Shown here one piece after another: positions 1 to 59,654 of a stretch of 64,000 nucleotides of DNA. Positions within the stretch are counted from its first letter, which is position 1; each line of letters opens with the position of its first letter. The notes under the pieces are model-generated. The model was given only the letters and a program-made list of their open reading frames with translations, searched no databases and had not been told where the DNA came from. The translations under genes were made by a program, and so were the position numbers. Location: NCBI GenBank assembly GCA_001724265.1, contig MEDY01000005.1, forward strand, positions 124,001 to 188,000, read 5' to 3'. The stretch comes from Rhizaria sp. SCN 62-66. Its lineage: Eukaryota.

Positions 1-1
1 C

Positions 2-6000: not shown

Positions 6001-7987
6001 GGCCGCCGGCGAGCGACGTGGCGGCCGCCTTCGGGCTGGTGCCTCTAGCACCCGCGCCCGCGCCGGCAGTCGCGGCCGCAGCCGCAGCGCCCGTCCCGGT
6101 GGCCGCAGCGGCGGCCGCAGCGGCGGCGGCGGCGGCGGCGGCGGCGGAGTTGGCAACCCGCAGCCTTAGTTCGTGCGCGGAGGGCAGCACGACGGTGATG
6201 AGGTCGGTGCACTTCTCCTCGGCGGCCAGACGCGCGGCCTTAAGCGCCGCGGCCGCAGCCTTGTCCGCACGGCTCAGGGGCTGCTTGCCTTTGCCCTTGC
6301 CCTTGCCCTTGACACCACCGCCGGGAGCAGTTGTGTGAGACTGGGGCTGAGTCTGGGCGCTCTCGATGTCGCTGCTTTCGGGGTTGGGTGAGATAACGAG
6401 GCTAGAGTCGGCCTCAGCCTCAGCGTTCGTCGCGGTCTCAGGCTCTGGCACGGCGTCGTCGCCACCATCGTCATCGTTCTCATTGTCGTCGTCGTCGTTC
6501 GCATTGTTGCTGTTGTTGCTGTTGTTGTTCTCATCCGTAGCAACAACGTCGTCGACACTGTTCGCGTTCGCAGCATCCTCAGCGTCTGCAGCAGCATCAG
6601 CAGCCGCGTCCGCAGCCGCGTCAGCCTCGACGGTGTTCTTGCTGTCGCCGTTACCGTCGCCGGCGCCGTCGCGTGAGACGAGTTGTTTCCTGCGGTTGAG
6701 GTATCCCTTGCTGGCGAGGTAGAGCTCGCTCTCAAGGTACTCTGTGAGCACAAAAAGTCCCGCGCGCACGCAGTGGCTCGCTGTCTCGCGCAGGTGGCCG
6801 CGCACCTGCCGCTCCGAGAAGCCCTTGCGCTCGAGCGACACGATGTAGTTGTCGCGGAACTCCGGGCTCACCATGAGCATCTCCTGCCGGTGCAGCACGC
6901 GGCGCGATTCGCGCGTGAGTCCCCGGCGCCGCACCTGGTCGTAGCAGACAGTCACGCCCAGCGGGCTGCACAGCGACGAAAGCAGCGGGCACCGCACCGC
7001 CGCGCTCGTGCTCACCGTCACCTGCGTACCCGCGGCACTGCCAGTGGTACCCGTGGTGGTACCTGTGGGGCTCAAGGTCGCTTGAGCACCAGTCCCGGCC
7101 GCGGGCCCAGTGGCGCCCGCGGCCGCTACGGCGGACTGCGATTGGAGCTGCGACGACGAGGGCTCCGCGTCTTGTTGCTGCTGTTGTGCGCTCTTGTCGT
7201 CGGCAGTGTCGTCGGAGGCATTGCTGTTGCTCGTAGCGCTGTCTGTGCCGGTCTTGTTCTTGCGCTTGCGGCCGCCGCCGGAGGACGCGGAGGCAGAAGC
7301 GGCGGAGATGGCGGCAGCCTCGGCCGTCGCGGCTGCAGCCATCTCCATGAGAGACGGGTGCTTCGTATCAGCGCGCTCGCTGCTGTCGTTGCTGTTGTTC
7401 TTCTTGTTGTCCAGACGGATGATGTGGACGCAATTCATCGCAATCACGTCAAGCTCGGCCTCACTCAGCCCGCCTACAGCCACAGTCGCTGTCGCGCCCG
7501 CACTGGTAGCCACAGCAGCAGCAGTATTATCGCTGCACAGCGCATTCACACCGCAAGCCTCACCCGCCAGACTGTTACTGATGACAGCGCCCGCGCCAGC
7601 GCCAGCGCCAGCGCCGTGCTCGGACGACGGCAGCAGCAGCTGGTTGGCGAGCGCGTTGGCGCGGGCAAACTGGCGGTACTTGCGCGCGCGCGAGACGCTG
7701 GCGGTAGCGTACGTGACGTCGCGGCAGCCACGGCGCAGGTACACGACGTCGTAACCCAGCGCGACGAGCAGCGGCGCCCACGCAGAGTGCAGGTTGTCGA
7801 CCTCCTGGAGCGCAACCACGTCTGCGCCCGCCTGTCGCAGCGTCGCCGCAAAGCGCGCCGCGCGGGAGGGGAACGCCAGCAGCGACTTGGGGCAGTAGGG
7901 AAACTGCTTGGAGGACGCGTAGGCCTTGGCCAGGACGTTCCACGTCAACAGCGAGAAGTGGAACGAGCGCGCGGGCGTGGAAATCAT
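2..7987 (-). CDS. CCR4/Angel/nocturnin-like EEP (exonuclease-endonuclease-phosphatase) protein with a nested Mut7-C domain; 3'-partial, >2660 aa, apparently intronless in this window
   Basis: Stop-free minus frame from ATG 7987 off the window edge, so absent from the ORF track. In-frame motifs: FSLLTWNVLAKAY and DVVALQEVD (~7950-7800), RNNVGLILAL (~5370), VVATAHLFWNPMFEDVKLWQ (~5075), LTGDFNSMPHSLVY (~4870), Mut7-C block RLVVTSSLLRLAKSLRSIGIDTA...EGRVIVTD...IFSLCTACN...FYMCANGSCNRVYWFG (3625-2870), EPEYTNLTHLFRGCLDYILH (~170-110). Confidence 0.88.
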   Translation of the reverse strand, partial: MISTPARSFHFSLLTWNVLAKAYASSKQFPYCPKSLLAFPSRAARFAATLRQAGADVVALQEVDNLHSAWAPLLVALGYDVVYLRRGCRDVTYATASVSRARKYRQFARANALANQLLLPSSEHGAGAGAGAGAVISNSLAGEACGVNALCSDNTAAAVATSAGATATVAVGGLSEAELDVIAMNCVHIIRLDNKKNNSNDSSERADTKHPSLMEMAAAATAEAAAISAASASASSGGGRKRKNKTGTDSATSNSNASDDTADDKSAQQQQQDAEPSSSQLQSQSAVAAAGATGPAAGTGAQATLSPTGTTTGTTGSAAGTQVTVSTSAAVRCPLLSSLCSPLGVTVCYDQVRRRGLTRESRRVLHRQEMLMVSPEFRDNYIVSLERKGFSERQVRGHLRETASHCVRAGLFVLTEYLESELYLASKGYLNRRKQLVSRDGAGDGNGDSKNTVEADAAADAAADAAADAEDAANANSVDDVVATDENNNSNNSNNANDDDDNENDDDGGDDAVPEPETATNAEAEADSSLVISPNPESSDIESAQTQPQSHTTAPGGGVKGKGKGKGKQPLSRADKAAAAALKAARLAAEEKCTDLITVVLPSAHELRLRVANSAAAAAAAAAAAAAAATGTGAAAAAATAGAGAGARGTSPKAAATSLAGGRPPLPPGFRAAAGASPAAATPARGASGADPLAGEAGLLSPAAALQSPAVPATPLATSSASRTKADGCLIAFRAAAFALAALPLGVHCDDLSDPAAALMPATYVPTQCESSANAGAAAGAGAGAVRYSLVPTVASVFGLKSGIYTHVPSHSTQAGTQTDASANSADGAVTSSTALTVSGSGAVTGAFTGSAAAAAALAPSVPTGPGIERYHRNNVGLILALQPRRQRTPTPASATANASSSAVRNPSLATAHGHSRAHYASARDQALRACKDVYMHSASSESTNAADTSSFDSEAGQTANGPGVRPPPVVVATAHLFWNPMFEDVKLWQSLYLLRSIEAYRLAIATQTAHAAKSEQSPNKSVSADAGSDGALPPVFLTGDFNSMPHSLVYRLLSSIRTPLPTGSATTPHGSSSAVPTGTSPSQIQTDAAAVSGASAVSSTDTASGASGAAGDDAAAALLAAACSARGSGSGLALALFPATATSSPTSSTKSLDVPAHTSPSQSQSSPHPQLQSPPQCQPLQRFVGVRSADVRAYDGIHPSPGTILPGGSLVSPTAATNNTIAALTLASASAPATHCNSFSADDDTEAAAAGAVAGARGRGKAVSSSGFLSAGPVGDAGNGKSGAGGKKQHVFGTDVASISTTDIYNYSTLPSASAAHTAPSAAAADSLSAHGDTAGAAAAGGYGGLACGLSGPVFPALGHVEGEFSIPFVRSYELDKSGDAADGVYAGGGDNSDSALRTHHAFDQQQLLLQQQKQQQQQELLSQQQQQSTSDGASGGSSVVRAPSPPRSAAPARLVVTSSLLRLAKSLRSIGIDTAYVEHTRTRAEVDALFRLAILEGRVIVTDSKSITKRANCPKCLYIPSPLPSEYLEPKVSAVVAATAAAKAAAAADAAAAVSEVTAKSKSHAKGADADEEDDEEDDNDCDAAGNPTGGGGGDCIPESAVADASKAATTATAAGKRVLMSSQRADARLRFILESLAIGFDPKRIFSLCTACNTPFYPVSLEHVRSLPFVPEMVKTGVNNRNGRTLHFYMCANGSCNRVYWFGRSSAKVADRFKQRLGSILPGPDADADANANIGGGGPGGNDADNDDSRGSYGRYLRYDYEHERRLFNTDNNATSTCNDDSKQSGDARDGVSSKAVESGNGPCAGASAAAADSAANEAPAGPDQDQDAVVNTYNFNNNNSPSLSARGSHNRSHSHSNLRACSSSASGSSDMLSPDSHLSPNTTTNAHAPAGLADSGAHAADRDGDSPASRTSTSSTSSRVSGSGNGTHATGGHGGSVAPVSAKMGARYPGRHGNIIHSLINNAFGAGHHGGNGGHLPCHGEEDEGDHSEDDDNLPLVAGLSAGAATPAPSPRPSPSPSPSPSPSPSQSPSLSPPLPPRSNSNSRSVAVGVSGLTGLAIAVNGVSGGGSGAGVGVISVGAAKGKSGNGSPVGAAGGAAAASAFAAESIASVGARVRALAASVHGHTHLSPIGLIGAEPSHGAGQALVHGHGPLSARLTVTLQPISGLTSANGVTLSPTSAGAGAARKGLPPRSSSFTLSPSCCSNGNAVSSPASFGATPAGNTSGVNALLCYHTQSAKSAAVNAPSAAAAASAAPAATPAPVAAGAGAAAAALAPAATIAVPASVAADVASPHAVANGLLQHPRLPPTLPTASSLPPSFAPIALPLPLPHCSYAHTQSLSHTAQSHATQWQSLSQTQVTPLSALLPLPPLFVTMPVPAAKPTSACDGGSTASGGDSADATDKTRRKRVVLVGYGGEVFSDTESDSESDADSTSGVDTEADESNAEPRAVSESMVIVNPRALLSVLHLPLPIPTLNNSISPSDEATPNTSFSCVSDTVRRLSKPSWQHALWLPRGPSSGSGDGSGVLCDDELTHSLGLSSVFAVNNNDHTQCMGNTNAVSTTHALVARDSPAPATVITPAPALVPAAAPTPQSELLPVLLSQAQGEPEYTNLTHLFRGCLDYILHSGAPATASGASNSGVRCIAAWTIAPLTAPKRVSTP

Positions 7988-8809
7988 CGGCGCGGACGAC
8001 GCGGGGGAGCTATATCTAGAGATAGAACTAGGGTTGCAGAGCGGCTGTGGTGCGCAGGCAAGGGATGTGCTGTTATGAGCTGGTTGCGGCGACGGCGGCT
8101 CTTGCGCAGGCGAGGCGAGGGTTGACACTGGGGGTGTTTGTGCTCTGGGCAGCAACGGAGGATCTCTGTTGCTGGTGTCGCCTCTGTCGGAGGCGTATGT
8201 GGAAGAAGACAAGGCCGACATGGTGGATATGGCCCAAAAAAGGCGCGGAAAATCCTGTCGGGGGAAGTTATTGAAGTTGGCGTGGGCACGGGCGCCATGG
8301 GGTGAGGGGACGAGGGAATGCGATGCAAATTGTAAAAGTGGACTTTGTGAGTCAAATACATGCACTTCTGGAATTTTATGCAAATTATATCAATAGAAAA
8401 CGAGGCGATGCTCTTGATTGCGTCGCGTTTAAAGTCAGAAAACGTATTTTCATGGCAGCACAATCACATGAATGACCTCAGAAAAGGCAAGAGTGCGTTC
8501 GTGGTCGGTGGGCTCGAGGCACATTTGCTCAGAAGCCATTGAGAGCAATAAACTGCTTTCTAACTTTGCGGTAAAATGTCGGAATAACAACAGCTTCATC
8601 AATTATTGTCTCGCAAAATGCTGGCGCTGATGACGATTCAGGAGCTGCAAGTGGACTCAATTTCAATTCAAGCTTCCCAGCCTTCATCTCGCGAGGGATC
8701 CCGACTTTCTCGCTTCCTCGCTCCCCGCAACCCCGCATTGCTATGTTTCCTTCTGCCTTGCTTACCCCCACATACGTGCCTACTATTTGTTCTGTTTTAT
8801 AGTCCTCTC

Positions 8810-11399: not shown

Positions 11400-13075
11400 T
11401 CACTGGCTCTCAGTGAGGGGGAGCTTCTTGTGCGTGTACTGGCACTCACCGTTGCCAAACTGCGTGACGGTGTGACCGGCCTCACTCTTGGAGACGAGGC
11501 GCCACTTGGTGCTCGTCAGGCCCTCCACGCCCACGGGGCCGCGCGCATGCAGGGGACTGGGCAGAGAAGAATGGGGAGACAAACAAAGTGGAACAAAAGT
11601 GGAATATGCAAATTGTGAGGTGAGAAACAAACATAATCACGTATACCTCACAAAACTAGTCGAACTCAAAATAAAAATAAATAACACATTGAGAATCCCA
11701 TTACACAAAACGATAGAGTCTTACATCGACAGACGAAGATATGGGAAAGATCTCCTCTGATTTGTTGTGCATAGAGAGACTATATTTCGTACCTGGTGGA
11801 GATGCCAACCTCGGCGCCGAGCCCGAAGCGGAACCCATCTGCGAAGCGCGTGGACGCGTTGTGGAAGACGCATGCGGCGTCGACGGCCTCGAGGAACGCG
11901 TCCGCGGTCTGCTGCTGCTCTGTAACGATGCACTCGGTATGGCGCGAGCCGTTGGCCGCGATGTGCGCCAGCGCGGCGGCCAGCGAGGGCACCAGCTCGG
12001 CCGTGATCTGCCGGTCGCCGTATTCGTGCTTGAGCGTCGCGGCGGGGCCCGCGATGTACTGCGCGAGCGCGGCGGCGTTGCTTTCGTTGCTGCTGACGGC
12101 GGCGGTCAGGGCCGGTCCAGCCCAGATCTTGACGCCCGCGGCCGCCAGCCCGGCCAGCACGGCCTCGGCCACGGTCACGGCCTCGGCGGCAGCGGCCGCG
12201 GTGCCCGCGTAGGGCTTAGCGCAGGTTGCGTTGTAGGACTTGGCGAGGAGCTCGGTGTTGATGAGCACAGTCTCGCACGCGTTGCAGGCAGCGGGGTAGT
12301 TAACCTTGGCGTCAACGGTAACAGCGACGGCCTTGTCGCCCGCGGCGGCGGCGTCGAGGTAAACGTGACAGATGCCCTCGCTGTGGCCCATGACGGGGAT
12401 GCGCGTGTTCTGCTGGATCGACTTGACCAGCTCGCCCGAGCCGCGCGGGATCACGAGATCGATGCAGTCATCCAGCGCGAGCAGCGACGCGATGTCGCCG
12501 CGGGAAGTCACCAGCGAGACGAGGTCGGCCGGCACGGCGCCATCGGAGCCTTCGGCGATTGCGGCCGTGACCAGAGCGTGCAGCGCGGCGTTTGAACGGG
12601 AAGCCTCCTTGCCGCCCTTAAGAATGAGCCCGTTGCCAGAGAAAATCGACAGCGCGGCAATCTGCGGAAGCGCATCGGGGCGCGATTCAAAGATAACGAG
12701 CAGGACGCCCAGCGGGACGCGGATCTGCTCGAGGTTGAGCCCGGCCGCGACCTCGGTGCGGCGGAGCACCTCGCCGAGCGGGTCCTGCTGCTGGCTAAGC
12801 TGCGTGATGCCCTGCGCCAGCACTGCGAGCTTCTCGGGGGTGAGCTTCAGGCGTGAAACAAGGTTCTCGTCTGTCTTGTGTGCGGCCGCGTCGGCGAGGT
12901 CGGCGGCGTTGGCGGCCAGCACTTCGGCCTGGTTCGACAGCAGCTTGGCTGCGAGGCAGGATAGGATGCGAGCGCGGGTCGGCTTGGGCACCACGGCGCG
13001 GAGCGTGGTCGCCGCCGAACGACACGAAACAGCCATCGCGCGGAGGTCGGAGGGCGAGGAAGATGTGGTTGACAT
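11400..13075 (-). CDS. proA: Gamma-glutamyl phosphate reductase (glutamate-5-semialdehyde dehydrogenase), stand-alone (479 aa; exons 13075-11793, 11556-11400)
   Basis: VPLGVLLVIFESRPD, SGNGLILKGGKEA, IDLVIPRGS, GHSEGICHVY, YPAACNACET, NASTRFADGFRFGLGAEVGIST|SPLHARGPVGVEGL. GTACGA...CAG intron 11792-11557. Stop TGA. Confidence 0.96.
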
Positions 13076-14303
13076 AAAAGTCGCTGCGGTAAAAACGGTA
13101 CAGAAAGAGACGCGGAGGAGTGAGACGGAGGGGGGACTGAGGAAAGCATCCGGACTTAGAGCTAACGGCGTGCTCTGCAGCACTCGATAGATCGCATCAC
13201 CAGCAAGAAATATATTAAATAAATGCACTTAATCTCGTTTTTAATTCGGACTTGATAAATGCATTTTGCTTAATTGAGCGACCATGGAGATACGCTAAAC
13301 TTTTCAAACTGCATCACTGACCCTGGCCGGATGTCTCTCTCGACCGTGGCCGACGAGCAGTACGCAAAACCGATTTGTGGTAGACGTCGAAACGATCTGC
13401 TCAGTCGTCGTATCGCGCGGCATGGCCAGGAAGATGGCGTCGCAGGCCGGCCCGGGTATATCGTGTGATCAAAGCGAAAATCATTTGAATACTGGGATTG
13501 TTTAACGAATGTTTAAGTTATTGGAAATAGTTTTGGAGCTTCCAAGTGCTGGGGTGTCGAATACGCAGCAGCGAAGTTTCGCGTCCCCACTGCGAGGGGT
13601 GAAATCAAATCTTGCACCGCGCCCTCGGGCTTCACGCACATGCACGCCGCGTACTGCCAATTCAACGTTATCCGCCGCAAACTGGGGGAGTAGCACTGTG
13701 AATTTCTCTCCGGTTGTAGACTTGCTCGATCTTGCGTGCCGACTGCTTTGATTGGCGACGCATGTGCGCGCAAAGTGCGCCGATGACGAGCTTCTCGCGC
13801 TCTTCCATCCAGCCTTCATCTGCCTTGCCTCATGCCCGCTAAACTCCATCTGTTCTCTCCTTACCAAACTTTTTGTGTAGAACTTTGAGCGAACTACGAG
13901 GTTTCGCTTGTTGCTTTGTGCCCGGTACCAGTTTTGTGTACCGTTGCGCAATTTCAGAGAACGCTCCCAACCACAATCCGTATCTCCGTATCTGCATCTG
14001 GCACTGCCTCCTTTGGCCTCCACTCTCTTGCGCGCGCTTTCCTGCCTCGCTTCCCGATCTTCCCCGAGCCTGCGCCCCGGCTCCCGCATTCTCGCAGTCG
14101 TGGCCGCCGCTCTTGAGACCGCCCGCCTTCCCTTGATCCGCCTGCATCAAGCCCGCACTCCTTTCACTCGGCATTTGTGCAGCCGCCGTCGCCGCCGCAG
14201 CCGCTCGAGTCGCAGCGACCGTCGCAGCAACCCTTGAGTCGCCGTTAAGCTTTTCCCGCCCGCGCGCTTCCCCTGTGCGCGTCTGCTGCTGTTTGAGCAC
14301 GAA

Positions 14304-17300
14304 ATGCAGCCCTCGCAGCCCCAGCAGCCACAGGCGCAGTCGCCGCCGCGTTCGCCGTCGCAAGCGCAAGCGCAGTCGCAAGCGTTGCCACTGCCGCTGC
14401 CGCAGCCGCCCGCAGCCGCCGCCGTCACAGGCACGCCTCTGACTGCCACTGACTCCAGCTCTAGCGCTCGCTGCGCGAAGGACTCCGCCGCCGACGACGA
14501 CGGCATCACCGGCAGCAACATCACTGGCGCCGCTGACGACGATGAGAGTGAGCGCGTGAGCACTACGGCGGGCTCTATCTTTAGCCAGCACAGCGGCCGT
14601 GACCGTGACCGTGAGCACGATGACGGCGACGGCGACGGTGATGGTGGGTTTGACTACGAGAGCGTGCGGAGTGTGACCGTGAGCACCACGCTCTCGGACT
14701 CCGCGCACGCGCACTCGCTCTCGCTCTCGCAGTCGCTGTCGCGGACGGCATCGGTGACTGGCTCCGACGACTAGCAGGAGCCCGTTGACGACGACGATGA
14801 CGACAACGACGGCGACGGCGGTGATGATGATCTTGCGAGCGACACCTTCGCAAGCGATAACATTGCAAGCGAGAACAACAACAGCGAGGACGACGACGAG
14901 GGCGACGATGATGACGAGGGCGCCCACAGCCACTCGCTGAGCGACAGCGGCCGTGACCCCGGCTCCGCGGGCGGCAGCACAGGGCACCAACCCCAACCCC
15001 AGTCAAAGCCTGCTCACGACAACTCCAACAACAGCAGCAGTCGCAACACGGGTGCTAAGACGACGACGCTCGCGCGCGCTATGAACGCAGGCTCCGGCGC
15101 TGCTAGTTCCCACGCCGCGGCCCGCGCCCGCGCTGGCGCAATGGAGGACGGCGACGAAGACGGTGACGGCGACGGCGATGGCGATGACGACGCTGAAGAT
15201 GACGATGAAGTCAACGTCTCCCACCAAGATCACAGTCACGACCACGACGAGGACGACGACGGTCACAACGAAGACGACGAGGACGAAGACAACGACGACG
15301 AGTAGCACGGTCGAGACGCGGCCGCCGCCTCCGCGCCCGGCGCCACCGCTGCAGCTGGTCACGGTGCGCTCACAGGTACGCAGCATACCCAGCATGCCCA
15401 GACCAACGCCGGCGCCGGCGCCGATGCCAGCGGCGCTGACAGCGGCGGCAACGACGGCGCCGGCGACGGCAGCGCCGGCGACGGGAACGGAGACAGGAAC
15501 TTCTCGCGCGCGGTCAAGCTGTACCAGCTGAGCGAGGAGGGGCTCTGGGAGGACAGTGGGACGGGGCGCGCGCTGGTGGAGCAAGATCCACTGCCGTCGG
15601 TTGCCGCCGCGCTGCACGCGGTCGAGGCGCTCGCCGAGGACGCCGAGGCGCTGCTGCTGCGCTACGCTATCAGGGTCCACATCGTCAACTCCAGCAGCGC
15701 CGCCTCCAACGGCAACGGCAGCGGTGCCGCGGGTGTCGGCGCTCTCGGCGGAACACATGGGGGAACGCATGGTGGCGCCGACGGGGGCATGCCGCGGACG
15801 GCCCATGATAGCAGCGACGACGCCTGCTCCAGCGCCGCCGCCGCCACCGCCGCCGCCGCCGCAGCCGCCGCCCGCCAGCAACAACAGCAGCAGTTTCACC
15901 ACGGCTCTGCGGGCGCCGATGACGAGGACGAGGACGGCGATGATGCGTTCAACCTGTGCATCGTGCTTGAAGGGTGGGACCTGTGCCACCGCCAGGGCGC
16001 GACGATCATCACCTGGGTGTCGTCGTCGTCCAACTGTGACCTCGCGCTCTCCTTCCAGGTACGATGCTAAATCAAACAAAACATGATATATCTCGCCCAA
16101 TGTCTTGTGAATTTTACTAAAACGGGTATATTATCGTGTTCTTTGCATTTCTTGAATATTAAATATTGCTTTGAATTCCGCTCACCCTTGTGTATATCCA
16201 CCGCATTTTCTTTTGTAGGACGCCGAGTGCTGCGACGACCTGTGGACGCGGCTGACGGCGCTGCGCGAGCTGAAACTTGCGCTGGAGCCGTATCTGCCGT
16301 ACCGCGCGCTGAGCGAGGTGCCCCCGCTGACTGCGGCGACGGTCGGCGCCGTGGCCGTGCGCATGGAGCTGTTTCTGTCACCGCACAAGCGCGATGACCT
16401 ACTCACGCTGCTGCGCATGGGCCGCTGCATCGAGTTCATCACACCAAACAACTCGTACGCATACAGCGCTGCCGCCAACAACAACAACACCACCAACAAT
16501 AACAATGACGGTGATGGTGCTGTCAAAACTGAGACTGCGGCCAGTCCTACCAAGAGCACTGGGGCTGCGGCCGCGACCAGTGACAGTAAGCAGCCCCAGA
16601 CCGGCGACGCCAGCAGCGGCGGCGCGGCTGAGGCCGAGTCAGACTCCGTGTCGCTGCCGCCGCTGCCCTCGTCTCTGACCGACTCCGGCAGCACGAGCAC
16701 TGACAGCACTAGCGCGAGCTCGAGCTCGAGCTCTGGCCCAGGCTCAGGCTTCAACTCGCCTCTGAAGCGTGCCCGCGAAGACAGCAGCGCCAGCACAGAC
16801 AGTGCCAACACTGGCGCTAGCGCTGGCGCTGGCGCTGGCGCTGGCGCTGGTGCTGAGATGGCTGAGACCGAGGCTGAGTCTGAGACTGCGACCGAGGCCG
16901 CGACCGTGACCGTGACGGTCGCCAGCGAGTCTGGCTCCGGCTCTGGCTCTGAGCCCGCTGCCGCTGCCGGTGGCGCTGCTGGCAGTGCGGTCGTGAAGCG
17001 GCCTCGCCTTGCGTCGCTATCGCCCTCGAAGCCGCCCGCAACCGCCGCCAACACGGACTCCAAGTCCGACAGCGACGGTGACAGTAGCGGCAGCGACGAC
17101 GAGGACTCTCGCGTCACTGCCGACGCAGAGGCCGCCCCGGCTCACAGTCAGGAGCCCGAGGCCACCGAGGCTGACAATGATGCTGAAGCTGAGGCGGAGG
17201 CTGAGGCTGACCAAGAGCAGGAGCAGGAGCAGGACCACGAAGATCACGACGAGGACGAGGACGGCGATGGTGAGCACGACGACACGCAAGATCAGGAGCA

Positions 17301-20300
17301 GGAGGCTGAGCAGCAGTTCGAGGAGGGCCAGCTGCGCCGCGCGCCCGAGCTCGTGGTGACAGTTCTGCTCCTGGCGGTCGACGCCGACGCGAGCGGCGAC
17401 ACAGCCACATCGCAGTCGTGCTTCCGCATCGTGCGCGTGCTGCTGCAGTGCGCGGACCTCGCGCTGCTCGACCTGCTCACCAGCCCTGTCTTCACGCCCG
17501 CCGTGGCCACCGCACTCGAGCACGACCCCACGCTCGCGCTGCCCGCGTCCGTCCCCCGCACGCGCCACCGCAGGTTCCTCGCGCAGGCGCGCCTCAAGGA
17601 CGTCGCCGGGCTCGCTCGCGCAACCGCGCATGCCACCGCGGCCAACGCAGGGGCGGCTGGGACTGCTGGTGGGGCTGCGGGTGCACCCGCGAATACCGCT
17701 GGCTCTGGCGCGGGAGTGGTGCAGAAGGCGCACCAGAACTTCTTCGCGGCGTACTTGCGCGACGTGGTGCTGCTCCACTACGCGGAGGAGCACACGCTCA
17801 ACGTGATCCACTCGCTTGTATACAGCAACGAGGTCGCCATGATGACCACCATGCTGCAGGTACGTGTCATCACTAAAGCAAAACCACGACTAAAAACGAC
17901 GTTTTGGCGATGTCCTTGTGTTTGATTCCTCGAAAACATGAATCATTTATTTATATCTATTACAATCACTTTTCAATTGCTTATTCACATCTCAAAACTT
18001 ACTTGTGTCTTATTATTTTGTTCATCTCTTTTGTTGATTGTTTATCTCGCGCACAGTCGTCGACGTTCCTGCCGTCAGTCTTCGCGACGCTGAAGCGTCT
18101 GGCCCGGTTCGACCTCGCGCACAGCCGGACGCCCTCGACGACGGCGGGCTCGGTCGCAGTCCCGCTGGTCGAGGACCTGCTTGTGCTGGCCCCGCGCGCG
18201 TACCGCCAAGTCGTCGTCGGCACCGGCGGCGCCGCGCCGGGCGCCGTGCCGTTGGTTCCCACGCTGCAGTTCGGCTCCAGCACCGCGGTCATCGCCTCGG
18301 CCACCCACAGCACCGACTCGTCCGCCAGCACGAGCACCAGCACGTCCACCGCGAGCACACCGTCCAAGGACTCGCGCGACGCCAGCTCCCACGGCAGCGC
18401 CAGTTCGAACTTGAGCGCGAGCTCGAGCGTGAGCGTGAGCGGTGTGGCCGTGGGGACGCGCGGAAACGCGGTGAGCATGCTGCGCTACCTGGGCGCCACG
18501 CTCCAGGTCGAGGCAGAAGCAGAGGCCGAGGCGGCGGCGGAGGCCCAGGCGGCGCAGCAGCAGCAGGCGCACGATCAGGAGCAAGAGCAGGAGCAGGAGC
18601 AAGAGCAGGAGCGGGGTGAGAATGAGAGCGAAGGCGTCGCCGTCAAGACAGAGGTCAAGCTCGAGACTGACTTTGCCGCTGCTTCTGACAGCAACACCGT
18701 CACCAAGATGACTGATCTTGACTCGATCCTCATCAAAACCGAACAAAGCAGCAGCATCATGTCTACGACCGCTGACGCTAACGCAAACGCTCCCGCGACA
18801 GTGGCGAGTGCCGACCTCTCTGCCAGCTCCAGCGGTGTCGCTGACACTGCTGCCGCTGACGCTGCTGCCGCTGACACCGTTGCTGGTGCAGCTGCTGCAC
18901 CTGCGCCTGTGCCTGTGCCTGAAGCCGCCATCCCGGAATTCAAGCCGCACCTGCTAAGCCAGGCCGCCGAGCGCCGGCTGCTGTTCCAGTTCGTGCAGGA
19001 CCTATGCTCAATGGCCAAGAACCAGCAGCTGAAGCTGCGCGCGCAGTTCATCGACTGCCTGTTGTCGTCTGGCTTCCTACGCGCGCTCGAGACGGCGCTG
19101 CTGACGTCACCGCGCACGCAGCGCTGGCTCTGGGTGTGCGCCTGCTCGGTGCTGTCGATGCTGCTGGCGCACGCGCCGCTGCAGCTGCGGCGCCACCTCG
19201 CGGGCTCGCGCAGGGCGCGCGCAGAGGCGCGGCGCGCGCGGCGGGAGGCGGACCGCAGCGACAAAGAGGCCGCCGCGACGGCCGCGCGCAACCGGGCCCG
19301 CGCCGCCGAGGGCTCGCGCGCCGCCGCCGCCGTCTCGCTCGCCAAGGCAGAGGCCGATGCCAACAACAACAACAACAACACGAGCAGCATCAGCAGCGCT
19401 GTGAATGGGAACAGTGTGCTTGACGCTGTCGTGGTGGGCAGCAGCAGCGCGATCGCGTCGCTGCTTAGCGGCGGCATCACTGGCAGCGCTGGCGCTGGGC
19501 TCACTGGTACTGGCCTCACTGCGGGCACGGGGCTCGCTGTTGGCACCGGCCTGACTGCGCTCGCGAGCGCCCCCGGGCTCATCCCAGGCAGCCTCAGCGC
19601 CAGCGCCAGCGCCAGCGCCAGCGGGAGCAACCCCATTGCGGCGACGACGCCCGCGGTGCCGCTGTGCGCCGCCGTCAGCCCCAGCAAGAGCCTCTCCAGC
19701 GCCAGTGCCAGCGCCAGCGCCGGTGCGAGCAGCAGCACGCCTAATGGTGGCGCTGCGACTGCCAGTCTGGGCGCGAACGCTCCCAGCTCTGTTCCTAGCT
19801 CTGCGTCAGGCGCTGGCGCTGGCTCCGTGTTGAGTAATACTGATCTTAACAGCGCGGTTGGTTGGGCGCTCGCAGGCGGGCCCCCGCCGCTGGTCAAAGC
19901 CGCCAGCACTAACGCCAACAACGCCGCCGCCAACACGGCGACCACGACCGTGGGTGTCAAGAGCGCGGCCCTGCGTCGGCCGCGGTCGCTGCTCACGGTC
20001 ATCGTGTGCGCGCTCACCGAGACGCCCTGTCTGGCCCGCGCGCCGCGCAACTTGCCCGCGGCAGCCACGGTACCCGTGGGTTCCGCGAGTGCCTTAAGCA
20101 CCGCTGGGGCGGCGAGTGCCAGCTCTGGCGCTGCGAAGGCCAGCAAGGCGAGCGTGAGTGGCTGTGAGAGCGAGAGCGACGGCTTCGGCGACAGCGGCGG
20201 CGACAGCGACAGCGAGGACAGTACCTCAGACGACGACGAAGACGACGACGACAGCGACGGCGACGGCGACGGCGGCGGTGACAAGGACGACGATGGTGAT

Positions 20301-23300
20301 GACAGCGGTAACGTGAGCGTAGCCGGCAGCGACACCGAGACCGTCCCGGCCACCAACTCCTCCGACTCTGACCGGGATGACCGGGATGGGGACGGAGAGG
20401 ACTCGGACTCGGACAACAAGAGCCGCGCCGCCGCCGTCACGGCCAACAGCAGCAGCCTGCGTCTCCCGCGTCCCACCGCCAGTGCCGCAACCAAGAGCAC
20501 GAGCAAGAGCAATGGCAAGTCTCAGAAGTCTCGCTCTCCCTCGAAGAGCGCCCGCGGTGGCAAGCGCAGGCGTGCGCGGCGGCGGCGCGCGCTGGTGCCT
20601 GTGCCGGGCCCCGGGCTGGACTCCGGCGTGATGCTGCAGCTGGAGGAGCTGCTGATCCGACTGCTGGACCAGGACGCCGCTACCGCGGTTACGGCGGCCT
20701 CGGCGGCGGGCGGCAGAGGGGGCGGGGACGACTTCCTGTCCTTCTTTTTCACCGTCCAGATGCCCATCCTGGCAGACGCGCTCGGCCCCGCGCCCGCGCC
20801 CTACACCAGCGGCATCAGCAGCGGTTCCAGTGGCAAAAGCAGCAGCTCCAGCTCAAGTAGCAGTAGTCTGCTCTCTGCGGCGAGTGCCAGTGCCAGTGCT
20901 GACTCTCTGGCTGGCGCCGACTTCAGTGCCAGTTCGAGCATGACCTCCCTTGCTGTGACTACACAACAACAACAGCAGCAGCAGCAGCAGCAGCCTGAGC
21001 ACGAGCAGATCCGCCTCACGACGGGCTCTCTCCACGCGCTCGAGCTGCTGTCGTTCATCGTGCGCACGCACAACGGCCACTTTAACCTCTGCTACCGCCG
21101 CCTCCACATCTTCCCGCGCGTCGCGGCCCGCCTCCGCGCCGCGCTCGACACCGCGCTGCAGGGCGCGTCCCCGGCCGCCGTGACGATCCTGCGCGCCAGC
21201 CCGGCCTTCGCTCGCGGCCGCGCCCCGCCCGCCGCCGCCGCCGCCGACGCCGCCGCCGCGCTCGCGCTGCAGTCGCTGCCGACCGCGGCCGCCGCCGCCG
21301 CCGCGGGGACGCTGCCCGCCACGGCGCTGGCGACCGCGCTGACGACGCTGGCGCTGCCGGCGCTGTCGGCGCGGCTGCCGCCCGACGCGGCGGGGCTGTG
21401 CGCGGCGCTGCGCTTCTTGCGCGTGTGCGTGGGCAAGCTCGAAGTGACGTACTGCAACAGCATCGCCACCACGCGCGTGCTCGACACCGTCATGGCACTC
21501 TTCTCGCTCAACGGCGGCCGCTACAACCTGCTCAACTCGACCGTCGCGGGGCTGCTCACCGCCATCAGCGACGTCTCAGCGCCGCCGCTGCACCACCACC
21601 ACCACGCCTCTGCGGCCGCGGCCGCGGCGCACGGGCACTTCGGCGGCGGCTTCGGCGGCCACCTGGGCCCGCGACGCGGCGGCGCCGGCGCCGGCGGGCG
21701 GGGCGGCCTCGGGCTCGGCGGCTACCTGCCCTACTACCACCTCGGAGGCGGCCGCGGCGGCCGGCTCGGCGGCGTCGGCGCGCTTGGCATGGGCGGACTG
21801 CACCGGTCATTCGCGCACCTGGTCGCCGCCGAGACCGCGGCCCCGGCGCCTGTGGGCATCGCGCTCGCGAAGCAGCTCGTGCTCTCGCACCTGCACAGGC
21901 TCACGGCGCCCGCATTCGCCAAGTACGTCACGCTTTGATTTGAAACGCGTTTATCTCTTTGTTCTGAACACGCTTTGCAATTTATTTTTGATATCATATG
22001 TCATTGATGGGATCAAATCTATCTTTTTTTATTTTTCTTCGAAGTGCCTTTACTTATATGCTCATATCTATCTTATCTCTCGTTTTCTATTCTTGGCTCT
22101 ACGCTCCTCTCCTCTTGCTTTGCATCCCAGTCTGGCGACGACGCTCAAGGACCGCGTGGGGGCATACCACGCGCGCCGCCGCCTCGCCAACGGGCCCGGC
22201 GGCAGCAGCCACGCCGCGCGCTCCTCGATCCAGTACCCGCGCTCCGCCGCCGGAACCCATGGGGGCACGCATGGGTCCGCCACGGGCGCGCTGGCCCGCG
22301 TCGGCCTCGGCCTCAGCCTCGCTGGCGGTCCTGCCGCCAGCGGCACCGGCGGCGGCAGCGCCAGCGAGCAGTCGGTCCTAGCGGGGCTGCGGCAGCGCCA
22401 GGGCCAGGGCCTTGGCGGCCTCGGCGGCCTCGGTGGACTCGGCGGACTGGGTGGTCTGGGCGGACTGAGCGGGCTCGCTGACCTCAACCGTGGCAACCGC
22501 GGCGCTGGTGCCGGCACCGGCGCTGGCGCTGGACTTGGGTTGGGGCTGGGAGCGGGCAACAAGACCTGGCAGCAGCAGCAGCAGCAGCAGCAGCCGCAAC
22601 AGGGCGGTGTCCGCGGCCGCGGGCTGGCCGAGCTCGCCCGCCTCAGCACTGCCGGTGTCGGTGGCGTCGGCGGTGTCGGTGCGCTGAGCGGGCTGGGCGG
22701 GTTGTTGGGGTTCGGCAGCGGCGTCCTGGGCGTCGGTGCGAGCAACAGCAACAGCGGTCGCCGCCGCCGCCGCCGCCACGCGCGGGCCGGGGGACTGGGC
22801 GCGAGCACTGACGACCTCAACTGCGACGACAACGACGACGATGACGACGAGTTCGAGGATGACGACGACTTGAGCGTCAGTGACGGCGACGGCGACGATG
22901 AGACTAACCTCGACCACGACGACGATGACGACGATGTCGACGTCGGTGTTGATGAGAACGGCAACCGGATCCGAGCTGGCGACGTCGTCGCAGCGTTCTC
23001 GCACGACTTCGAGCACGACGACCTGGACAACAACAATGTCAACGACGACGCCGACGTCGACCACGAGGACGACGAGGACGACGACCAGCATGGCGCGGGC
23101 ATCGCGGGTAGCTACTACGGCGTGACTGGCATTCGCCACGCGCACCAGCTTCAGCAGCACCGGATGTCTGACAGTGACGACGACGGCAACGCCAGCGAAG
23201 GCCACGATTAGAGCAACGCCGCTCATGGTCTTACTCTCGGCCACGGTCATGGCCACGGCCACGGGACTGAGAGAGATGACGACGATGAACACGAGGCCCA

Positions 23301-23307
23301 ATTTTAA
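14304..23307 (+). CDS. PPP4R3: Protein phosphatase 4 regulatory subunit 3 (SMEK/PSY2/SMK-1 family), ~2812 aa with three in-frame TAG codons (exons 14304-16058, 16219-17859, 18057-21922, 22131-23307)
   Basis: EVH1-type N-domain AVKLYQLSEEGLWEDSGTG...HRQGATIITW...DLALSFQ|DAECCDDLW. SMK-1 region ALEHDP...HRRFL...KAHQNFFAAYLRDVVL. C-terminal CAALRFLRVCVG...RYNLLNSTV. Three GTACG...AG introns keep frame. TAGs at 14772, 15303 and 23209; first TAA at 23305. Confidence 0.88.
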
Positions 23308-23641: not shown

Positions 23642-25098
23642 TCAATCAGCGTCCTCCGCGTCGTCGTGAGCCATGAGCTCGTCAAGCATCGCCTGCTCCT
23701 GCTCCTGCTCGAACTCCTCGTCGCCCGCAGCGCCCGCCGCGGCGCCCGGGCGCCCGCGCCCAGATCTAAAGCCAGAGGCAGAGGCAGCAGTGGGCTTAGC
23801 TACCGCGCTCGGCCGGGAGCCTCCCGGGCCCAGCGCGGGGTTCAACGAGCCACCGTTCGCGGCGGCAGCGGCAGTAACGGCGGCAGCGGTGGCAGCGGCG
23901 TTGGCGGGAGCAGGGGGGAGCTGGTTGTGGCTAAACTGATGGTACTGATGTTGCGTCTACAGCTGCCCACCCATTCCCGCTCCCGCCCCGGCTGAACCGG
24001 TCGGCCCAGGCGCCGCCCCCGGGCCAGGCGCTGCGGCCCCCGGTCCGCCGTATGCAAGCTCCTGCCCGCCAAACGCAAGCCCTGGCCCGTACGCAGGCCC
24101 CGCGCCGGTCACCGCCGCCGCGCCGTACGCGGGCGCGGTCGGCACCGCCTGCGTGTTCTGCGCCGCCGGCGAGTACGCGTGCAGCGGCGGGCGCCCGCGC
24201 ATGCGCACGCCCGCGCGCTCGCGGCGCTCGATGTTAGCGAGGTTTTCTGCCTGCGCGCGCGCCGTCTGCGCCGCCGCATCGACGCGCCGCTGCGTCTCGT
24301 ACGCCGCCTTGCGATCGGACGCGGCCGTCGCCACAGAGCCGATGAGCCCGCGTGTGCGCGTGCTGCCGCGGGTCCCCGCCGGCGGCGGCGCGAGCGGCGC
24401 GGGCACAGGCGCAGACACGTCTGCGTCAGCGGCAGCCGCGGTGGCGGCGGCGCGAGCGGCGGCGGCGACGGAGACGTGGTTCTTCCAGCGGCCCCTGCCG
24501 GGGCCCTTGGCGAGGCTGCCTGTCTGACCGGTGTGGCCCGAGGCCGCGACCCCGGCCCCGCCAGTGGTCGCGTTAGTTAAGCCGGGCTCAAGCTTCACGC
24601 GCGCCTCGGGCCGCGCCTGCACCCGCGAGAGCAAGCGCTGCTGCTGCTGCTGCAGCTGGTGCTGCTGCTGGTACTGCTGCTGCTGCTGGAGCTGCACGAG
24701 CTGCAGGTTCTGGTGCTGCTCGCTGCGGTACATGGGCGCGCGCTGTCGTTCGGCGCGGACCTGCGTCTCGGCGGCCCGCTGCGCGTTCATGCGGTCCATG
24801 CGGTCTAGTCGCTTGCGCCACTCTTGCCGCATCGCCGCCTCGCTGCGCTTGCCGCCGTAAGTGCGCACGACCCACTGCGGCAGCGGGTCGCGCTCGGTGT
24901 CGGTGCGCCGGCCGATGGGGCGAAAGCCCCCCGCAACGTCGTCGCCACCGACCCCGCCGACACCGACGTCGACGTCGCCGACGCCGTGGCCGTGGGCAGG
25001 GCCCGTTGCGGAGCCCAGGGCGGAGCCCAGAGCGGAGGCCATGATGGGCCCCATGGCGCTGACTGGGGTGGAAGACATGTAGCTGCTGCTGCTGCTGG

Positions 25099-25166
<68 letters not shown>

Positions 25167-27358
25167 AACCCGTGACCGTGACCGAGATAACCGTGGGCGT
25201 GACCGTACGCAGGGACGACCGGCCCGGCCATTTGCTGAGGCACCACAGTCCCCTGCGGCGGCATGCCAGCGGCGGCGGCGGCCGCAGCGGCGGCGGCGGC
25301 GGCCACGGCCGTTGCCACCGCAGTCGGATCGCTCGCTGGCACAGGCGCAGGCTCAGGCGCAGGCGCTGGTGAGGCTGCTGCTGAAGGTGAAGATGTGGCT
25401 GTGGACGCCCCCGCGATGTGCGCGGTCTGCGCGGCGGCAATAGCGGCGTTGTCGTTGCCGAGCTCGCGCAAGCGCACCACCTCGGCGATGGACGCCGCCA
25501 TGGCAACAGCATTCGGCGGCCGAGTCTGCGACTGCGAGTCCGAGCGCGAGCTCTCGACCTGCTCCGGCTTCTGCTGCTGCTGCGGCGGCGGCGGCTTCTG
25601 GGGGTAGTACGGGGCAGCGTCGCTGTTCAGACTGGAGCCCAGACTGGAGCCAGGAGCGGGCGGCGCCGGCGCGTCAGTCGGCGCGGCCACATGAACAGGC
25701 GCATGCACAGGCACAGACGCTGTCGCGGGCGCGGGCGCAGTCACGGGGCCGGCGGCGGCGGCGGCGACCGTGGCCTCTGCCCTGCGCGCGGCCTCGACCA
25801 CGACGGCGGCGACGCGGGCCGCCGCCCCGCCTGCGACCGCGGCCGCAGCGAGCGCCGCGCCGTGGTCGATCCCGGCGATGGTCTCGCGCGCCTCGGCCGC
25901 CACGCGCGCCGCCGACGTTGACGCGACGCTCGCGGCCGCCACAAAGGCCTTGGCGTGCAGCGCGGCCGCAGCCGCAGCCTCGCTCGCGGGGTCCACCGCG
26001 CGCGCGGGGACGGCGATGCCTGCAGTCGCAGCTGCCACCGTGGCCGTGGTCGCGGCGGCCGCGGCGGCCTTGGCCTAGTCCTCGGCGGCCGCGGCGGCGT
26101 CAGCGATGGCGGCGACGACGACGGCGGCGGCGTGCGACGCGACAGCCGCCGTCGTGGCCTCGTCATCGTCCTCGTCCTCGTCCTCGAGGTCCTCAGCAGC
26201 AGCGGCAGCGGCGCCGGCAGAGGACAAGGAAGTCACTGCGGATACGGCGGCGGAGGCGGCAGGCGCGGCCGAGAATGACGCGAGCGACGCGGCCGACTGG
26301 AACGCGCCCGCGTAGGTCGTCGCGGTTGTCGCGGCCTCGACCAACGACGCGACGTAGCGGGCCGCGATCGCAGTCGACTCGCTGTCCGGCGTGTACTCGA
26401 ACTCCTCCTCCAGAGGCTGAGGCTGCTGCTGCGCTAGTTGCTGCTCCAGAGGCTGAGACGGTTCAGGCTTCTCCTGTTGCTGAGGCAGGTTCTCCTCGTG
26501 ATGCTGCTCTTGCTCATAGTACTGCTCCTTGTCCTGATCCTGAGCCTTAGCCTGAGGCTGACCCTGGGGCTGAAGCTGAGGTTGAGGCTGAAGCTGTTCC
26601 TGCTGCACCTTGATCTGCTGCGCCAACTGGTCCTGCTGCAATTGCTGCTGTTGCTGCTGCTGCCAGTGCTGCTTCTGCAGCTGCGCCTGCTCCTGCTTGT
26701 GCTGCTGCTGGAGCTGCACCTGTTGCTGCACCTGTTGCTGTTGCTGCTGCTGGTGCTGCTTCTGCTTCTGCTGGAGCTGCTGGCGCGTGCGCTGTAACTG
26801 GAGCTGCAGCTGCATTTGCTGCAACTTGAGCAGCTGTTCTTGGAGCTCTTGCTCCTGCTGCAGCAGCGCCTCCTCGTCATCCGGCTCCTCCTGCTCCTGT
26901 CCCTGTTGAGGTTGCTGCGACTGCGCCCGCCACGGCTGAGGCAAGGCGCCGCCCATCGACGCGACGGCGGGGACTTTAGTCACCGGCAGTGGCATGCCAG
27001 CCGTCGCGAGAAATCCCATGCCCGAGCCCGCGCCCGCGCTGCCCATCGCGCTGCCCATCACGCCGCCCATCACGCCGCCCATCGCGCCCGCCAGAGCGGG
27101 GCCGGGCTGCGCCGCGGCGTCGCAAAAGGAGTTGGTGCTGCTGTAGCTGCTGTTGCTGGCGTCGCTGTGCATGCTCGCGTTGAGGTCGTCGTACGGCTCC
27201 AGCGGCGGCGGGCCGGCGTCCTCGCCTTCGTCGCCGCCGACGCGGTGGTTCGAGGTCACGCTCGACAGCGCGCAAGTGTCGACAGGCGCAGCGGCCGCGG
27301 AGGCCGCTGTCTCCGCAGCCGTTGCGCCGGCGCCAGGGGGCGCAGTAGTCGAGAGCAT
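23642..27358 (-). CDS. Uncharacterised Gln/Ala/Ser-rich low-complexity protein, ~1238 aa with two in-frame TAG codons
   Basis: ORF-track pieces 26075-27373, 23957-26038 and 23642-23845 are in one frame and separated only by TAG (26075-26077, 23957-23959). Uniform GC-rich coding texture until TGA 23642, followed by AT-rich sequence. Start codon uncertain. Confidence 0.72.
25083..25163. repeat. Interrupted (CTG)n/(AGC)n microsatellite encoding a poly-Ser tract on the minus strand
   Basis: Direct reading: about 27 trinucleotide units with one interruption. Confidence 0.9.
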
Positions 27359-43900: not shown

Positions 43901-44305
43901 TTTAAGTACGGCGCTCTTACATTAGATGTTGAGATGATGAAAGCTTTTGTCTCCACTTTTCCGCCAAAACATATGATTGCGCTTGTGAACACTCTCAAGC
44001 CGTCACTTAATGATGACTTTGAACTCAAAAATGATGACACGGCCTTGAGCCAAATCAGCAATAATAGTGGCTGTGACAACGCAACTTCTGGTGATGACAT
44101 TGAGAGTGGTCAAGAGACAGGCAGTGATAATGACTATGTCCCTACAAATTCAACGCTTCCAGGCTACGACGGTTTACTAAAAATCGAAGCTGATCATGAT
44201 GATGAAAGCGACCATGAGTGCCATTATTGCGTCAACAACAGCTCTTGGCTTGATATGACCGTGGGCAGCACCAACAGCATTGCAGAGTTTCTTACGCCTT
44301 ATATC

Positions 44306-44394
<89 letters not shown>

Positions 44395-44440
44395 CGGCTC
44401 AGATCTCTCAACGCAGCATCCGAGACAATGCCGGTACTGA
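40937..44440 (+). CDS. Ankyrin-repeat-containing protein, intronless, ~1167 aa with two in-frame TAG codons; possible mitochondrial presequence
   Basis: ORF-track pieces 40685-42808, 42896-43210 and 43238-44440 share one frame and are separated only by TAG (42806, 43208). Ankyrin-like repeats LPLAAAIMCNLPRLVGALVRAGASP, GNALHHAAARNNVACAKEI, RPLEVALDAGHLEITQFLL, NPVHAAASGGSKACFEALL. First in-frame ATG 40937 gives an R/S/T-rich, acid-free N-terminus. Confidence 0.75.
44306..44395 (+). repeat. Perfect (AAC)30 microsatellite encoding poly-Asn
   Basis: Direct reading of 90 nt. Confidence 0.97.
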
Positions 44441-59576: not shown

Positions 59577-59581
59577 GAGGG

Positions 59582-59654
59582 AGCTCTCGGCGGGGATCGA
59601 ACCCGCGACATTCGGCTTCGAAGGCCGACGGAGTAACCACTCTCCTACAAGAGC
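59582..59654 (-). tRNA. tRNA-Arg, anticodon TCG, intronless
   Basis: Cloverleaf GCTCTTG-TA-GGAG(AGTGGTTA)CTCC-G-TCGGC(CT TCG AA)GCCGA-ATGTC-GCGGG(TTCGATC)CCCGC-CGAGAGC-T. Confidence 0.93.

Follow-up and report, generated by a model that had tools for sequence, protein, structure and literature searches.

How is a gene translated when its reading frame, followed from the putative start codon, meets TAG twice before it reaches the first conserved domain? The question is raised by a gene for PP4R3, regulatory subunit 3 of protein phosphatase 4, in a 64,000-nucleotide stretch of DNA from Rhizaria sp. SCN 62-66 (GenBank assembly GCA_001724265.1, contig MEDY01000005.1, positions 124,001 to 188,000 of the forward strand). 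We refer to this whole stretch as the window, and all coordinates below are positions within it. A sequence-only reading of the window had proposed that TAG is a sense codon here, since the EVH1 domain of PP4R3 could not otherwise be reached, and our analysis supports that interpretation. The TAGs are real, they lie in frame within coding-like sequence and in no recognisable intron, and the pattern is repeated in other genes. We consider it probable that UAG is translated in this organism as a rare sense codon, with UGA and UAA as terminators, and we include in this description a state in which decoding competes with termination. Translation of UAG is favored because it accounts for all the observations at once.

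We read the PP4R3 gene as four exons, with two conserved EVH1 segments in the first of them:

14304–16058 (+): exon 1, from the putative start ATG 14304, with an acidic low-complexity N-terminal extension of ~400 codons and then the first part of an EVH1-like domain
15504–15572 (+): first conserved EVH1 segment (SRAVKLYQLSEEGLWEDSGTGRA), aligning with residues 6–28 of the human PP4R3A EVH1 domain (6r8i_A) and residues 5–27 of the Drosophila Falafel EVH1 domain (4wsf_A)
15987–16058 (+): second conserved EVH1 segment (HRQGATIITWVSSSSNCDLALSFQ), aligning with residues 64–86 of 6r8i_A and 63–85 of 4wsf_A, collinear with the first and located past a low-complexity insert
16059–16218 (+): intron 1, 160 nucleotides (nt), GTACGATG...TTTTGTAG, 34% GC
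16219–17859 (+): exon 2, with a PF04802 match, phase 0 at both ends
17860–18056 (+): intron 2, 197 nt, GTACGTGT...GCGCACAG, 34% GC
18057–21922 (+): exon 3, 1,288 codons with zero stops of any kind and a PF04802 match
21923–22130 (+): intron 3, 208 nt, GTACGTCA...CATCCCAG, 36% GC
22131–23307 (+): exon 4, containing TAG 23209–23211, 31 codons ahead of TAA 23305–23307

The Pfam model PF04802 (PP4R3) matches at 16219–17925 (E = 1.9e-11) and at 17877–21938 (E = 2.1e-21), both over the 27-bit cut-off, and in a search with exon 3 (18057–21920) it matches with E = 1.7e-21; these matches identify the central PP4R3 (SMK-1) domain. The start of exon 2 had no match in the PDB. As had been claimed, the conserved domains downstream of the TAGs and the three introns are intact: PF04802 is found in exons 2 and 3, and the introns are canonical, all of the form GTACG...AG, 160–208 nt long, 34–36% GC and consistent in phase. 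Joined, the four exons make 8,439 nt, or 2,813 codons, in which there is no stop besides the terminal TAA and the TAGs at codons 157, 334 and 2781. Because 2,813 codons and three introns are intact, without TAA, TGA or a frameshift inside, PP4R3 is an intact gene and not a decayed one. Like the PP4R3/SMEK/Falafel/Psy2 proteins, it has a central PF04802 domain and, by a weak alignment, putative N-terminal EVH1 motifs in the right order; unlike them, it is ~2,800 residues long, with ~400 extra residues ahead of the EVH1 domain and ~140 residues of low complexity inserted within it. The introns, at 34–36% GC, lie within exons of ~70% GC, and similar introns occur in other genes of the window. Their acceptors often read TAG (16216–16218 in intron 1, and also in the ProA and NOC3 genes), so that TAG is frequent at intron ends and nearly absent from reading frames.

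From ATG 14304–14306 the frame runs for 156 codons to TAG 14772–14774, for 176 codons to TAG 15303–15305, and for 251 codons to the exon end at 16058; we call these two stops TAG1 and TAG2. We read the same residues along this frame as had been given before (VTGSDD*QEPVDDDD; EDNDDE*HGRDAAA; RNFSRAVKLYQLSEEGLWEDSGTG). The conserved EVH1 start, previously put at ~15510, is placed by the PDB alignment at 15504. The acidic GAC/GAT texture, said to be the same on both sides of TAG1, is indeed strong right before it and for ~50 codons after it; farther upstream the sequence is mostly rich in S, T, A and Q, with acidic patches. We scored codon usage by log-odds, trained on six long open reading frames (ORFs; 8,464 codons, none with a stop); the training genes hold acidic repeats too, so the score favors GAC/GAG-rich sequence. 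Held-out coding windows (n = 64) have a mean score per codon of 0.41 (5th percentile 0.229), and non-coding windows (n = 264) a mean of –0.20 (maximum 0.159). Along the start of the gene the values are:

14001–14303 (+): 5′ flank, –0.083 per codon
14304–14771 (+): extension before TAG1, 0.245 per codon
14772–14774 (+): in-frame TAG1 (codon 157), 40-codon coding scores of 13.4 before and 28.3 after
14775–15302 (+): extension between the TAGs, 0.497 per codon
15303–15305 (+): in-frame TAG2 (codon 334), 40-codon flank scores of 24.0 and 6.9
15306–15503 (+): extension from TAG2 to the EVH1 start, 0.342 per codon

All three extension pieces score within the range of the coding windows and higher than any of the 264 non-coding ones, and in each piece the remaining five frames have lower scores. 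Given the scores of the pieces and of the flank, the coding signal starts at about ATG 14304 and runs through both TAGs in one frame. At the other end of the gene, the tail between TAG 23209 and the TAA (23212–23304) scores 0.132 per codon and GC drops only past the TAA; the true end of PP4R3, TAG 23209 or TAA 23305, is ambiguous from the sequence. The region 23209–23307 is the place to look if TAG is both sense and sometimes stop.

PP4R3 is not the only gene of this kind, and the same pattern is seen in a neighbor on the other strand and in an orphan ORF farther along:

23642–27358 (–): low-complexity gene next to PP4R3, ~1,238 codons, rich in Q, A and S, with two in-frame TAGs, ending at TGA 23642
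26075–26077 (–): in-frame TAG, flank scores of 23.9 and 14.6, with 810 open codons and a GC of 0.80–0.83 after it
23957–23959 (–): in-frame TAG, 104 codons before TGA 23642, with a tail that scores 0.272 in frame
about 40937–44440 (+): orphan ankyrin-repeat ORF, about 1,170–1,260 codons, 48% GC, no bias in GC at third codon positions, with a run of ~30 Asn at its end
42806–42808 (+): in-frame TAG, followed by 543 codons without TAA or TGA, compared with 19 and 45 in the off-frames
43208–43210 (+): in-frame TAG, followed by 409 open codons; the database protein P0002 ends here

The minus-strand gene has no Pfam match, and its GC falls from 0.71 to 0.35 only past its TGA. The orphan ORF, taken as 1,260 codons, has 2 TAG, 0 TAA and 0 TGA, and its off-frames have TAA/TAG/TGA counts of 12/9/19 and 33/7/59 (31 and 92 for TAA and TGA together). 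Its ankyrin matches are weak, and its composition is unlike that of the neighboring genes. In public protein collections it appears as two fragments that end exactly at the TAGs 42806 and 43208. The first fragment exists there in four sequence variants from at least seven contig records, all of which end at 42806, and the second comes from seven contigs; because the four variants and all contig records stop there, these TAGs are fixed across the sampled strains. A search of the orphan ORF against 1.84 billion representatives gave six matches, which were its own two fragments and four ankyrin-repeat matches, and from these no residue could be inferred for TAG. An exact-sequence look-up of two TAG-terminated ORFs found neither in the protein collection.

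Across the window, 15 exon segments with 12,624 in-frame codons contain 5 TAG, 0 TAA and 0 TGA. With the 1,260 codons of the orphan ORF added, there are six clear TAG sites and one ambiguous site (23209), in three genes, and still no TAA or TGA. Single stops with at least 100 open codons on each side number 7 TAA, 13 TAG and 30 TGA in the six frames, and by inspection of per-position GC only six of them have a gene-like frame on both sides, all of them TAG: 14772, 15303, 26075 (–), 23957 (–), 42806 and 43208. When we asked for 40 coding-scored codons on each side at a threshold of 8, only two stops passed, both TAG (14772 and 26075, among 673 TAG), compared with none of 853 TAA and none of 1,735 TGA. 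At a threshold of 5 the same two-sided test passed 6 TAG, 2 TAA and 1 TGA; just three of these nine (14772, 15303 and 26075) are in the sense frame, and the other six are antisense to genes. We also calculated, from the mean off-frame density, the chance (P) that no TAA or TGA would follow each TAG:

TAG 42806: P = 1e-14
TAG 43208: P = 5e-12
TAG 14772: P = 6e-6
TAG 26075: P = 3e-4 (3e-4 to 9e-4)
TAG 15303: P = 0.03
TAG 23957: P = 0.14
TAG 23209: P = 0.22

Base composition separates the two kinds of stop as well. Within 150 nt past 18 putative TGA or TAA ends the GC is 0.31–0.58, and past the TAGs 14772, 15303, 26075 and 23957 it is maintained at 0.60–0.83. The ~18 putative gene or ORF ends comprise 13 TGA and 5 TAA; they are taken from ORFs, most without a homology check, and at least one is probably an exon end.

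The stretch is present in metagenomes from wastewater, bioreactors and activated sludge. Parts of it occur in 15 of the 18 sequencing runs listed, at least half of the sampled words in 6 and 99–100% of them in three DNA runs (X1–X3), and one run is on record as RNA. We compared the runs by their contigs only, and read depths were inflated by low-complexity matches from other organisms (in a DNA run, 138 in one bin compared with ~6 for the run's own contigs). Both TAGs are spanned, with 0 differences, by a contig (13811–15819) of a DNA run, X2, that may be the source of the window DNA. In a second run, X5, whose kind is not recorded and which is probably DNA because it covers intergenic sequence too, a contig (14735–15272) runs across TAG1 and comes from a strain with a difference at 14830, and in a third, X4, labelled RNA-Seq but probably DNA, a contig (14955–15433) bridges TAG2. 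A polyA metatranscriptome, X7, has a contig at 15005–15313 with 0 differences, in which TAG2 is present unspliced and unedited and which ends 8 nt beyond it; the same library has exact contigs at 15413–15819 and on PP4R3 exons 2 and 3. Among the contig rows listed there is no difference at either TAG, and among the contig joints listed there is none of the three known PP4R3 introns. Over the intergenic interval 13102–14169, where X2 and X5 have cover, X7 has cover of 0.2 and 0.85, which we did not use as evidence. The X5 strain differs from the window by a 9-nt insertion after 13418, in the spacer between ProA and PP4R3, and by A>G at 14830, a second codon position, which changes Asp to Gly in the acidic extension.

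Several results weigh against a sense meaning of UAG. The first is its rarity: with the TTG-to-CTG ratio of 0.132 applied to TAG and CAG, the 12,624 codons would be expected to contain ~59 TAG, and they contain 5, so TAG has about a tenth of the frequency of a settled sense codon. For comparison, the rhizarian exLh has 384 UAG in 71 genes (PMC5304391), and lineages in which UAG is sense use it far more. There is no TAG in the 8,464 training codons and none in any conserved domain, and all seven TAG sites are in low-complexity or orphan sequence. No TAG is aligned to a conserved amino acid, and searches for orthologues of the stretches that carry TAG found none: exon 1, scanned against metagenomes, yielded 593 pattern matches, due to low complexity, and no relatives; a protein search with the 585 residues of exon 1 scored 8,000 candidates without a match; and one with its residues 58–135 scored 431 candidates, also without a match. 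Of the single-base paths from the GC-rich codon usage of the genes to a stop, 71% end at TAG (41% for the orphan ORF), and because TAG dominates these paths, the fact that seven of seven sites are TAG is worth only P of about 0.03. To argue from the lack of genes that end in TAG is circular, since TAG would be the end of three genes if the code were standard. In GC-rich DNA an open frame alone is weak evidence, and the 254 open codons after TAG2 have P of about 0.03–0.37. The EVH1 alignment has two ordered segments but is weak (whole-sequence E = 0.02), and Pfam found nothing relevant in exon 1. ARAGORN and Rfam found no transfer RNA (tRNA) with the anticodon CUA in the 64-kb window, which is far too little sequence to conclude that it is absent from the genome; nor is there an eRF1 gene within the window. 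Contigs cannot show splicing levels or translation, and the RNA evidence is thin, as the 8 nt by which the polyA contig passes TAG2 are fewer than the 31 nt that we required for bridging.

The rarity of TAG in frame, ~10-fold relative to a settled sense codon, also speaks for the first alternative, which is that the code is standard and that some full-length protein is made by site-specific or leaky readthrough, with near-cognate tRNAs inserting a residue. The leakiest stop context in eukaryotes is a C directly after the stop, and both N-terminal TAGs have it, TAG1 being followed by CAG GAG and TAG2 by CAC GGT (TAG-CAG and TAG-CAC); the sites, moreover, are only in dispensable sequence. Programmed readthrough of UAG of the tobacco mosaic virus type uses the motif UAG-CAR-YYA, however, and the full motif is absent at TAG1 and at TAG2, and the other five TAGs are followed by A or G. 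Two TAGs in series would multiply low rates of readthrough and leave very little of a conserved regulator, and at least six sites in 3 of ~18 genes are far above what is usual for programmed readthrough. We therefore regard readthrough under the standard code as unlikely.

A second possibility is that PP4R3 starts after TAG2, at a non-AUG codon or on a later transcript, and that 14304–15305 is a leader with upstream ORFs or a separate small acidic gene. Under the standard code, the 156 codons from ATG 14304 to TAG 14772 would be an ordinary ORF, and past TAG2 there are four in-frame near-cognate codons, but only four: ACG 15378, AGG 15495, AAG 15516 and CTG 15519. The motif starts as early as residue 5 or 6 in the two solved EVH1 chains, and therefore translation must come from upstream of 15504. 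The earlier claim that ATG is missing from the interval between TAG2 and the EVH1 start is correct for the frame; as a trinucleotide, ATG is present at two places in frame +1, 15394 and 15424. Between 14000 and 15800 only 4 of the 20 ATGs are in frame (14304, 15081, 15141 and 15789), and the remaining 16 are all in frame +1, where they arise from GAT-GAN codons. Past 14000, the plus strand has no ATG before 14304, ORFs from ATG 15081 or 15141 terminate at TAG2, and ATG 15789 is inside the EVH1 domain. Several AUGs thus precede the few near-cognate codons, and the RNA at 15005–15313 from the polyA library has, ahead of them, two AUGs in frame (15081 and 15141) and several out of frame. The coding signal continues in the same frame across both TAGs and through 15306–15503, there is no GC drop after either TAG, unlike at every other gene end, and a downstream start would leave the TAGs of the other two genes unexplained. 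The possibility of a non-AUG start past 15305, which the sequence-only reading had itself named as a way in which it could be wrong, is not upheld, and we consider a downstream start improbable.

Another such possibility was that a transcript is spliced into 15306 with TAG2 as the acceptor. One or more hidden introns would then remove both TAGs, for example from a donor before 14772 to the AG of TAG2. Real acceptors in the window often do read TAG, and there is a donor-like GTACG site at 15376. The pyrimidine fraction in the 20 nt upstream of TAG2, however, is 0.25, compared with 0.65–0.85 in the three real introns, and among all 13 AG dinucleotides at 15301–15496 it is 0.25–0.60. From 13200 to 16300, GTACG or GTAAG occurs only at 13360, at 15376 and at 16059, the real donor; there is thus none within 14304–14772. 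An intron that used TAG2 as its acceptor would be at least 534 nt long, 57–74% GC and coding-like, with codon periodicity, whereas the real ones are 160–208 nt long and 34–36% GC. Unspliced contigs cover both TAGs, one of them from the polyA library, and hidden introns would account for PP4R3 only. With no in-frame ATG and no convincing acceptor between TAG2 and the EVH1 start, that start can probably not be reached without reading TAG, as had been claimed, and we consider hidden splicing very improbable.

The least credible explanation, that the code is standard and that PP4R3, its neighbor and the orphan ORF are young pseudogenes or truncated alleles with recent nonsense mutations, can draw on the 71% of single-base nonsense paths that lead to TAG and on the weak constraint at all sites, but it would need 3 of ~18 genes to have been struck two or three times each, by nonsense only, with no frameshift, TAA or TGA in 2,813, 1,238 and 1,260 codons, with introns intact, with TAGs fixed in contigs of several studies and in all four database variants, and with PP4R3 exons present in a polyA RNA library. 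As to a second intact PP4R3 copy, with the present one untranscribed, which the sequence-only reading had also named, contigs from the polyA library are exact matches to exons of the copy in the window.

If UAG is translated, PP4R3 would start at ATG 14304, and its acidic low-complexity extension of ~400 residues would precede the EVH1-like domain. The two TAGs of the extension would be read as an amino acid, as would at least four TAGs in the two other genes, which would make UAG a rare sense codon and leave UGA and UAA to end genes. Judging from the sequence, ribosomes may insert a residue at these TAGs by means of a tRNA(CUA), because eRF1 reads UAG poorly, or both. A reassignment of this kind would be young or still costly, because TAG is rare and confined to unconstrained segments. 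We give an even chance to the more specific proposal that the organism is a non-ciliate eukaryote of wastewater at an early stage of a UAG-only code change, in which UAG is needed for a conserved essential regulator but is ~10-fold under-used and tolerated nowhere except in orphan, low-complexity or fast-evolving sequence. The window, as at least 64 kb of multi-gene DNA, would fit poorly with the gene-sized chromosomes of phyllopharyngean ciliates.

The rest of the window is also eukaryotic in character, with GC-rich exons (about 65–75%) and AT-rich introns and spacers. One minus-strand frame at 1–8389 is open for at least 2,796 codons, with zero stops of any kind, and leaves the window; it has Mut7-C RNase and endonuclease/exonuclease/phosphatase domains. 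A stand-alone gene for ProA (gamma-glutamyl phosphate reductase) at 11400–13084 (–) is arranged head-to-head with PP4R3. A scan of metagenomes with ProA, aimed at synteny with PP4R3, gave 55 loci. One of them, L049, is a 3-kb metagenome contig that is 100% identical over the 3′ end of ProA, so the organism is also present, as short contigs, in a second public collection. The best of the other loci has 52% identity, and the 11 further top loci (of 54) that we checked have a composition unlike that of the window. A protein search with the importin of the window found the importin itself and P0011, an importin of 1,290 residues with 51% identity over 56% of the query, from a 6.7-kb contig sourced from NCBI. 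Among the relatives found for the window's proteins, P0011 is the closest and may point to the lineage of the organism; a scan of genome contigs with the importin gave 600 pattern matches and no relatives. The sole tRNA gene in the window, by ARAGORN and Rfam, is a tRNA-Arg (TCG) at 59579–59655 (–).

Nuclear changes of the genetic code are rare. Changes of UAG only, with UAA untouched, are rarer still, and Panek et al. (2017; PMC5304391) and McGowan et al. (2024; PMC11687900) name two non-ciliate lineages and a few ciliates. The two non-ciliates are the rhizarian exLh, in which UAG is Leu, and Iotanema spirale, in which it is Gln (PMC5304391). The organism of the window resembles them in that only UAG is in frame and UAA and UGA terminate, and in that the codon is seen in intact genes of a poorly known or uncultured protist. 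In exLh and I. spirale, however, UAG is frequent and occurs at conserved Leu or Gln positions, so that its meaning can be inferred, whereas in the window it is rare (5 of 12,624 codons) and never at a conserved position, in GC-rich genes with AT-rich introns. According to McGowan et al. (PMC11687900), UAG is Leu or Gln in phyllopharyngean ciliates, which are similar in that the change affects UAG alone, UAA still terminates, and metagenome-derived genomes supplied some of the cases. Their UAG is widespread and they have suppressor tRNA genes (PMC11687900), whereas in the 64 kb of the window no tRNA(CUA) was found and TGA is the commonest terminator. In the context-dependent codes of Condylostoma, Parduczia, karyorelicts and Blastocrithidia a stop may also be read as sense, and TAG 23209 of PP4R3 could be either; those codes involve two or three stop codons, heavily used, while in the window it is TAG only, and rarely. 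A literature search of limited coverage found no UAG-decoding eukaryote described from wastewater or activated sludge.

Should it be real, the change in this organism would add a case to UAG-only reassignments, a kind already known, and possibly one at an early stage. Gene callers that use the standard code split the genes of this organism, and PP4R3 would be annotated without its start. An independent case that is GC-rich, intron-bearing and low in UAG would bear on how reassignments begin, and it raises the questions of whether UAG appears first in unconstrained sequence and how the cell handles competition between release factor and tRNA. If the early-stage proposal is true, the organism would be a natural snapshot of a reassignment intermediate, of the sort that the ambiguous intermediate and codon capture theories predict but that is rarely seen.

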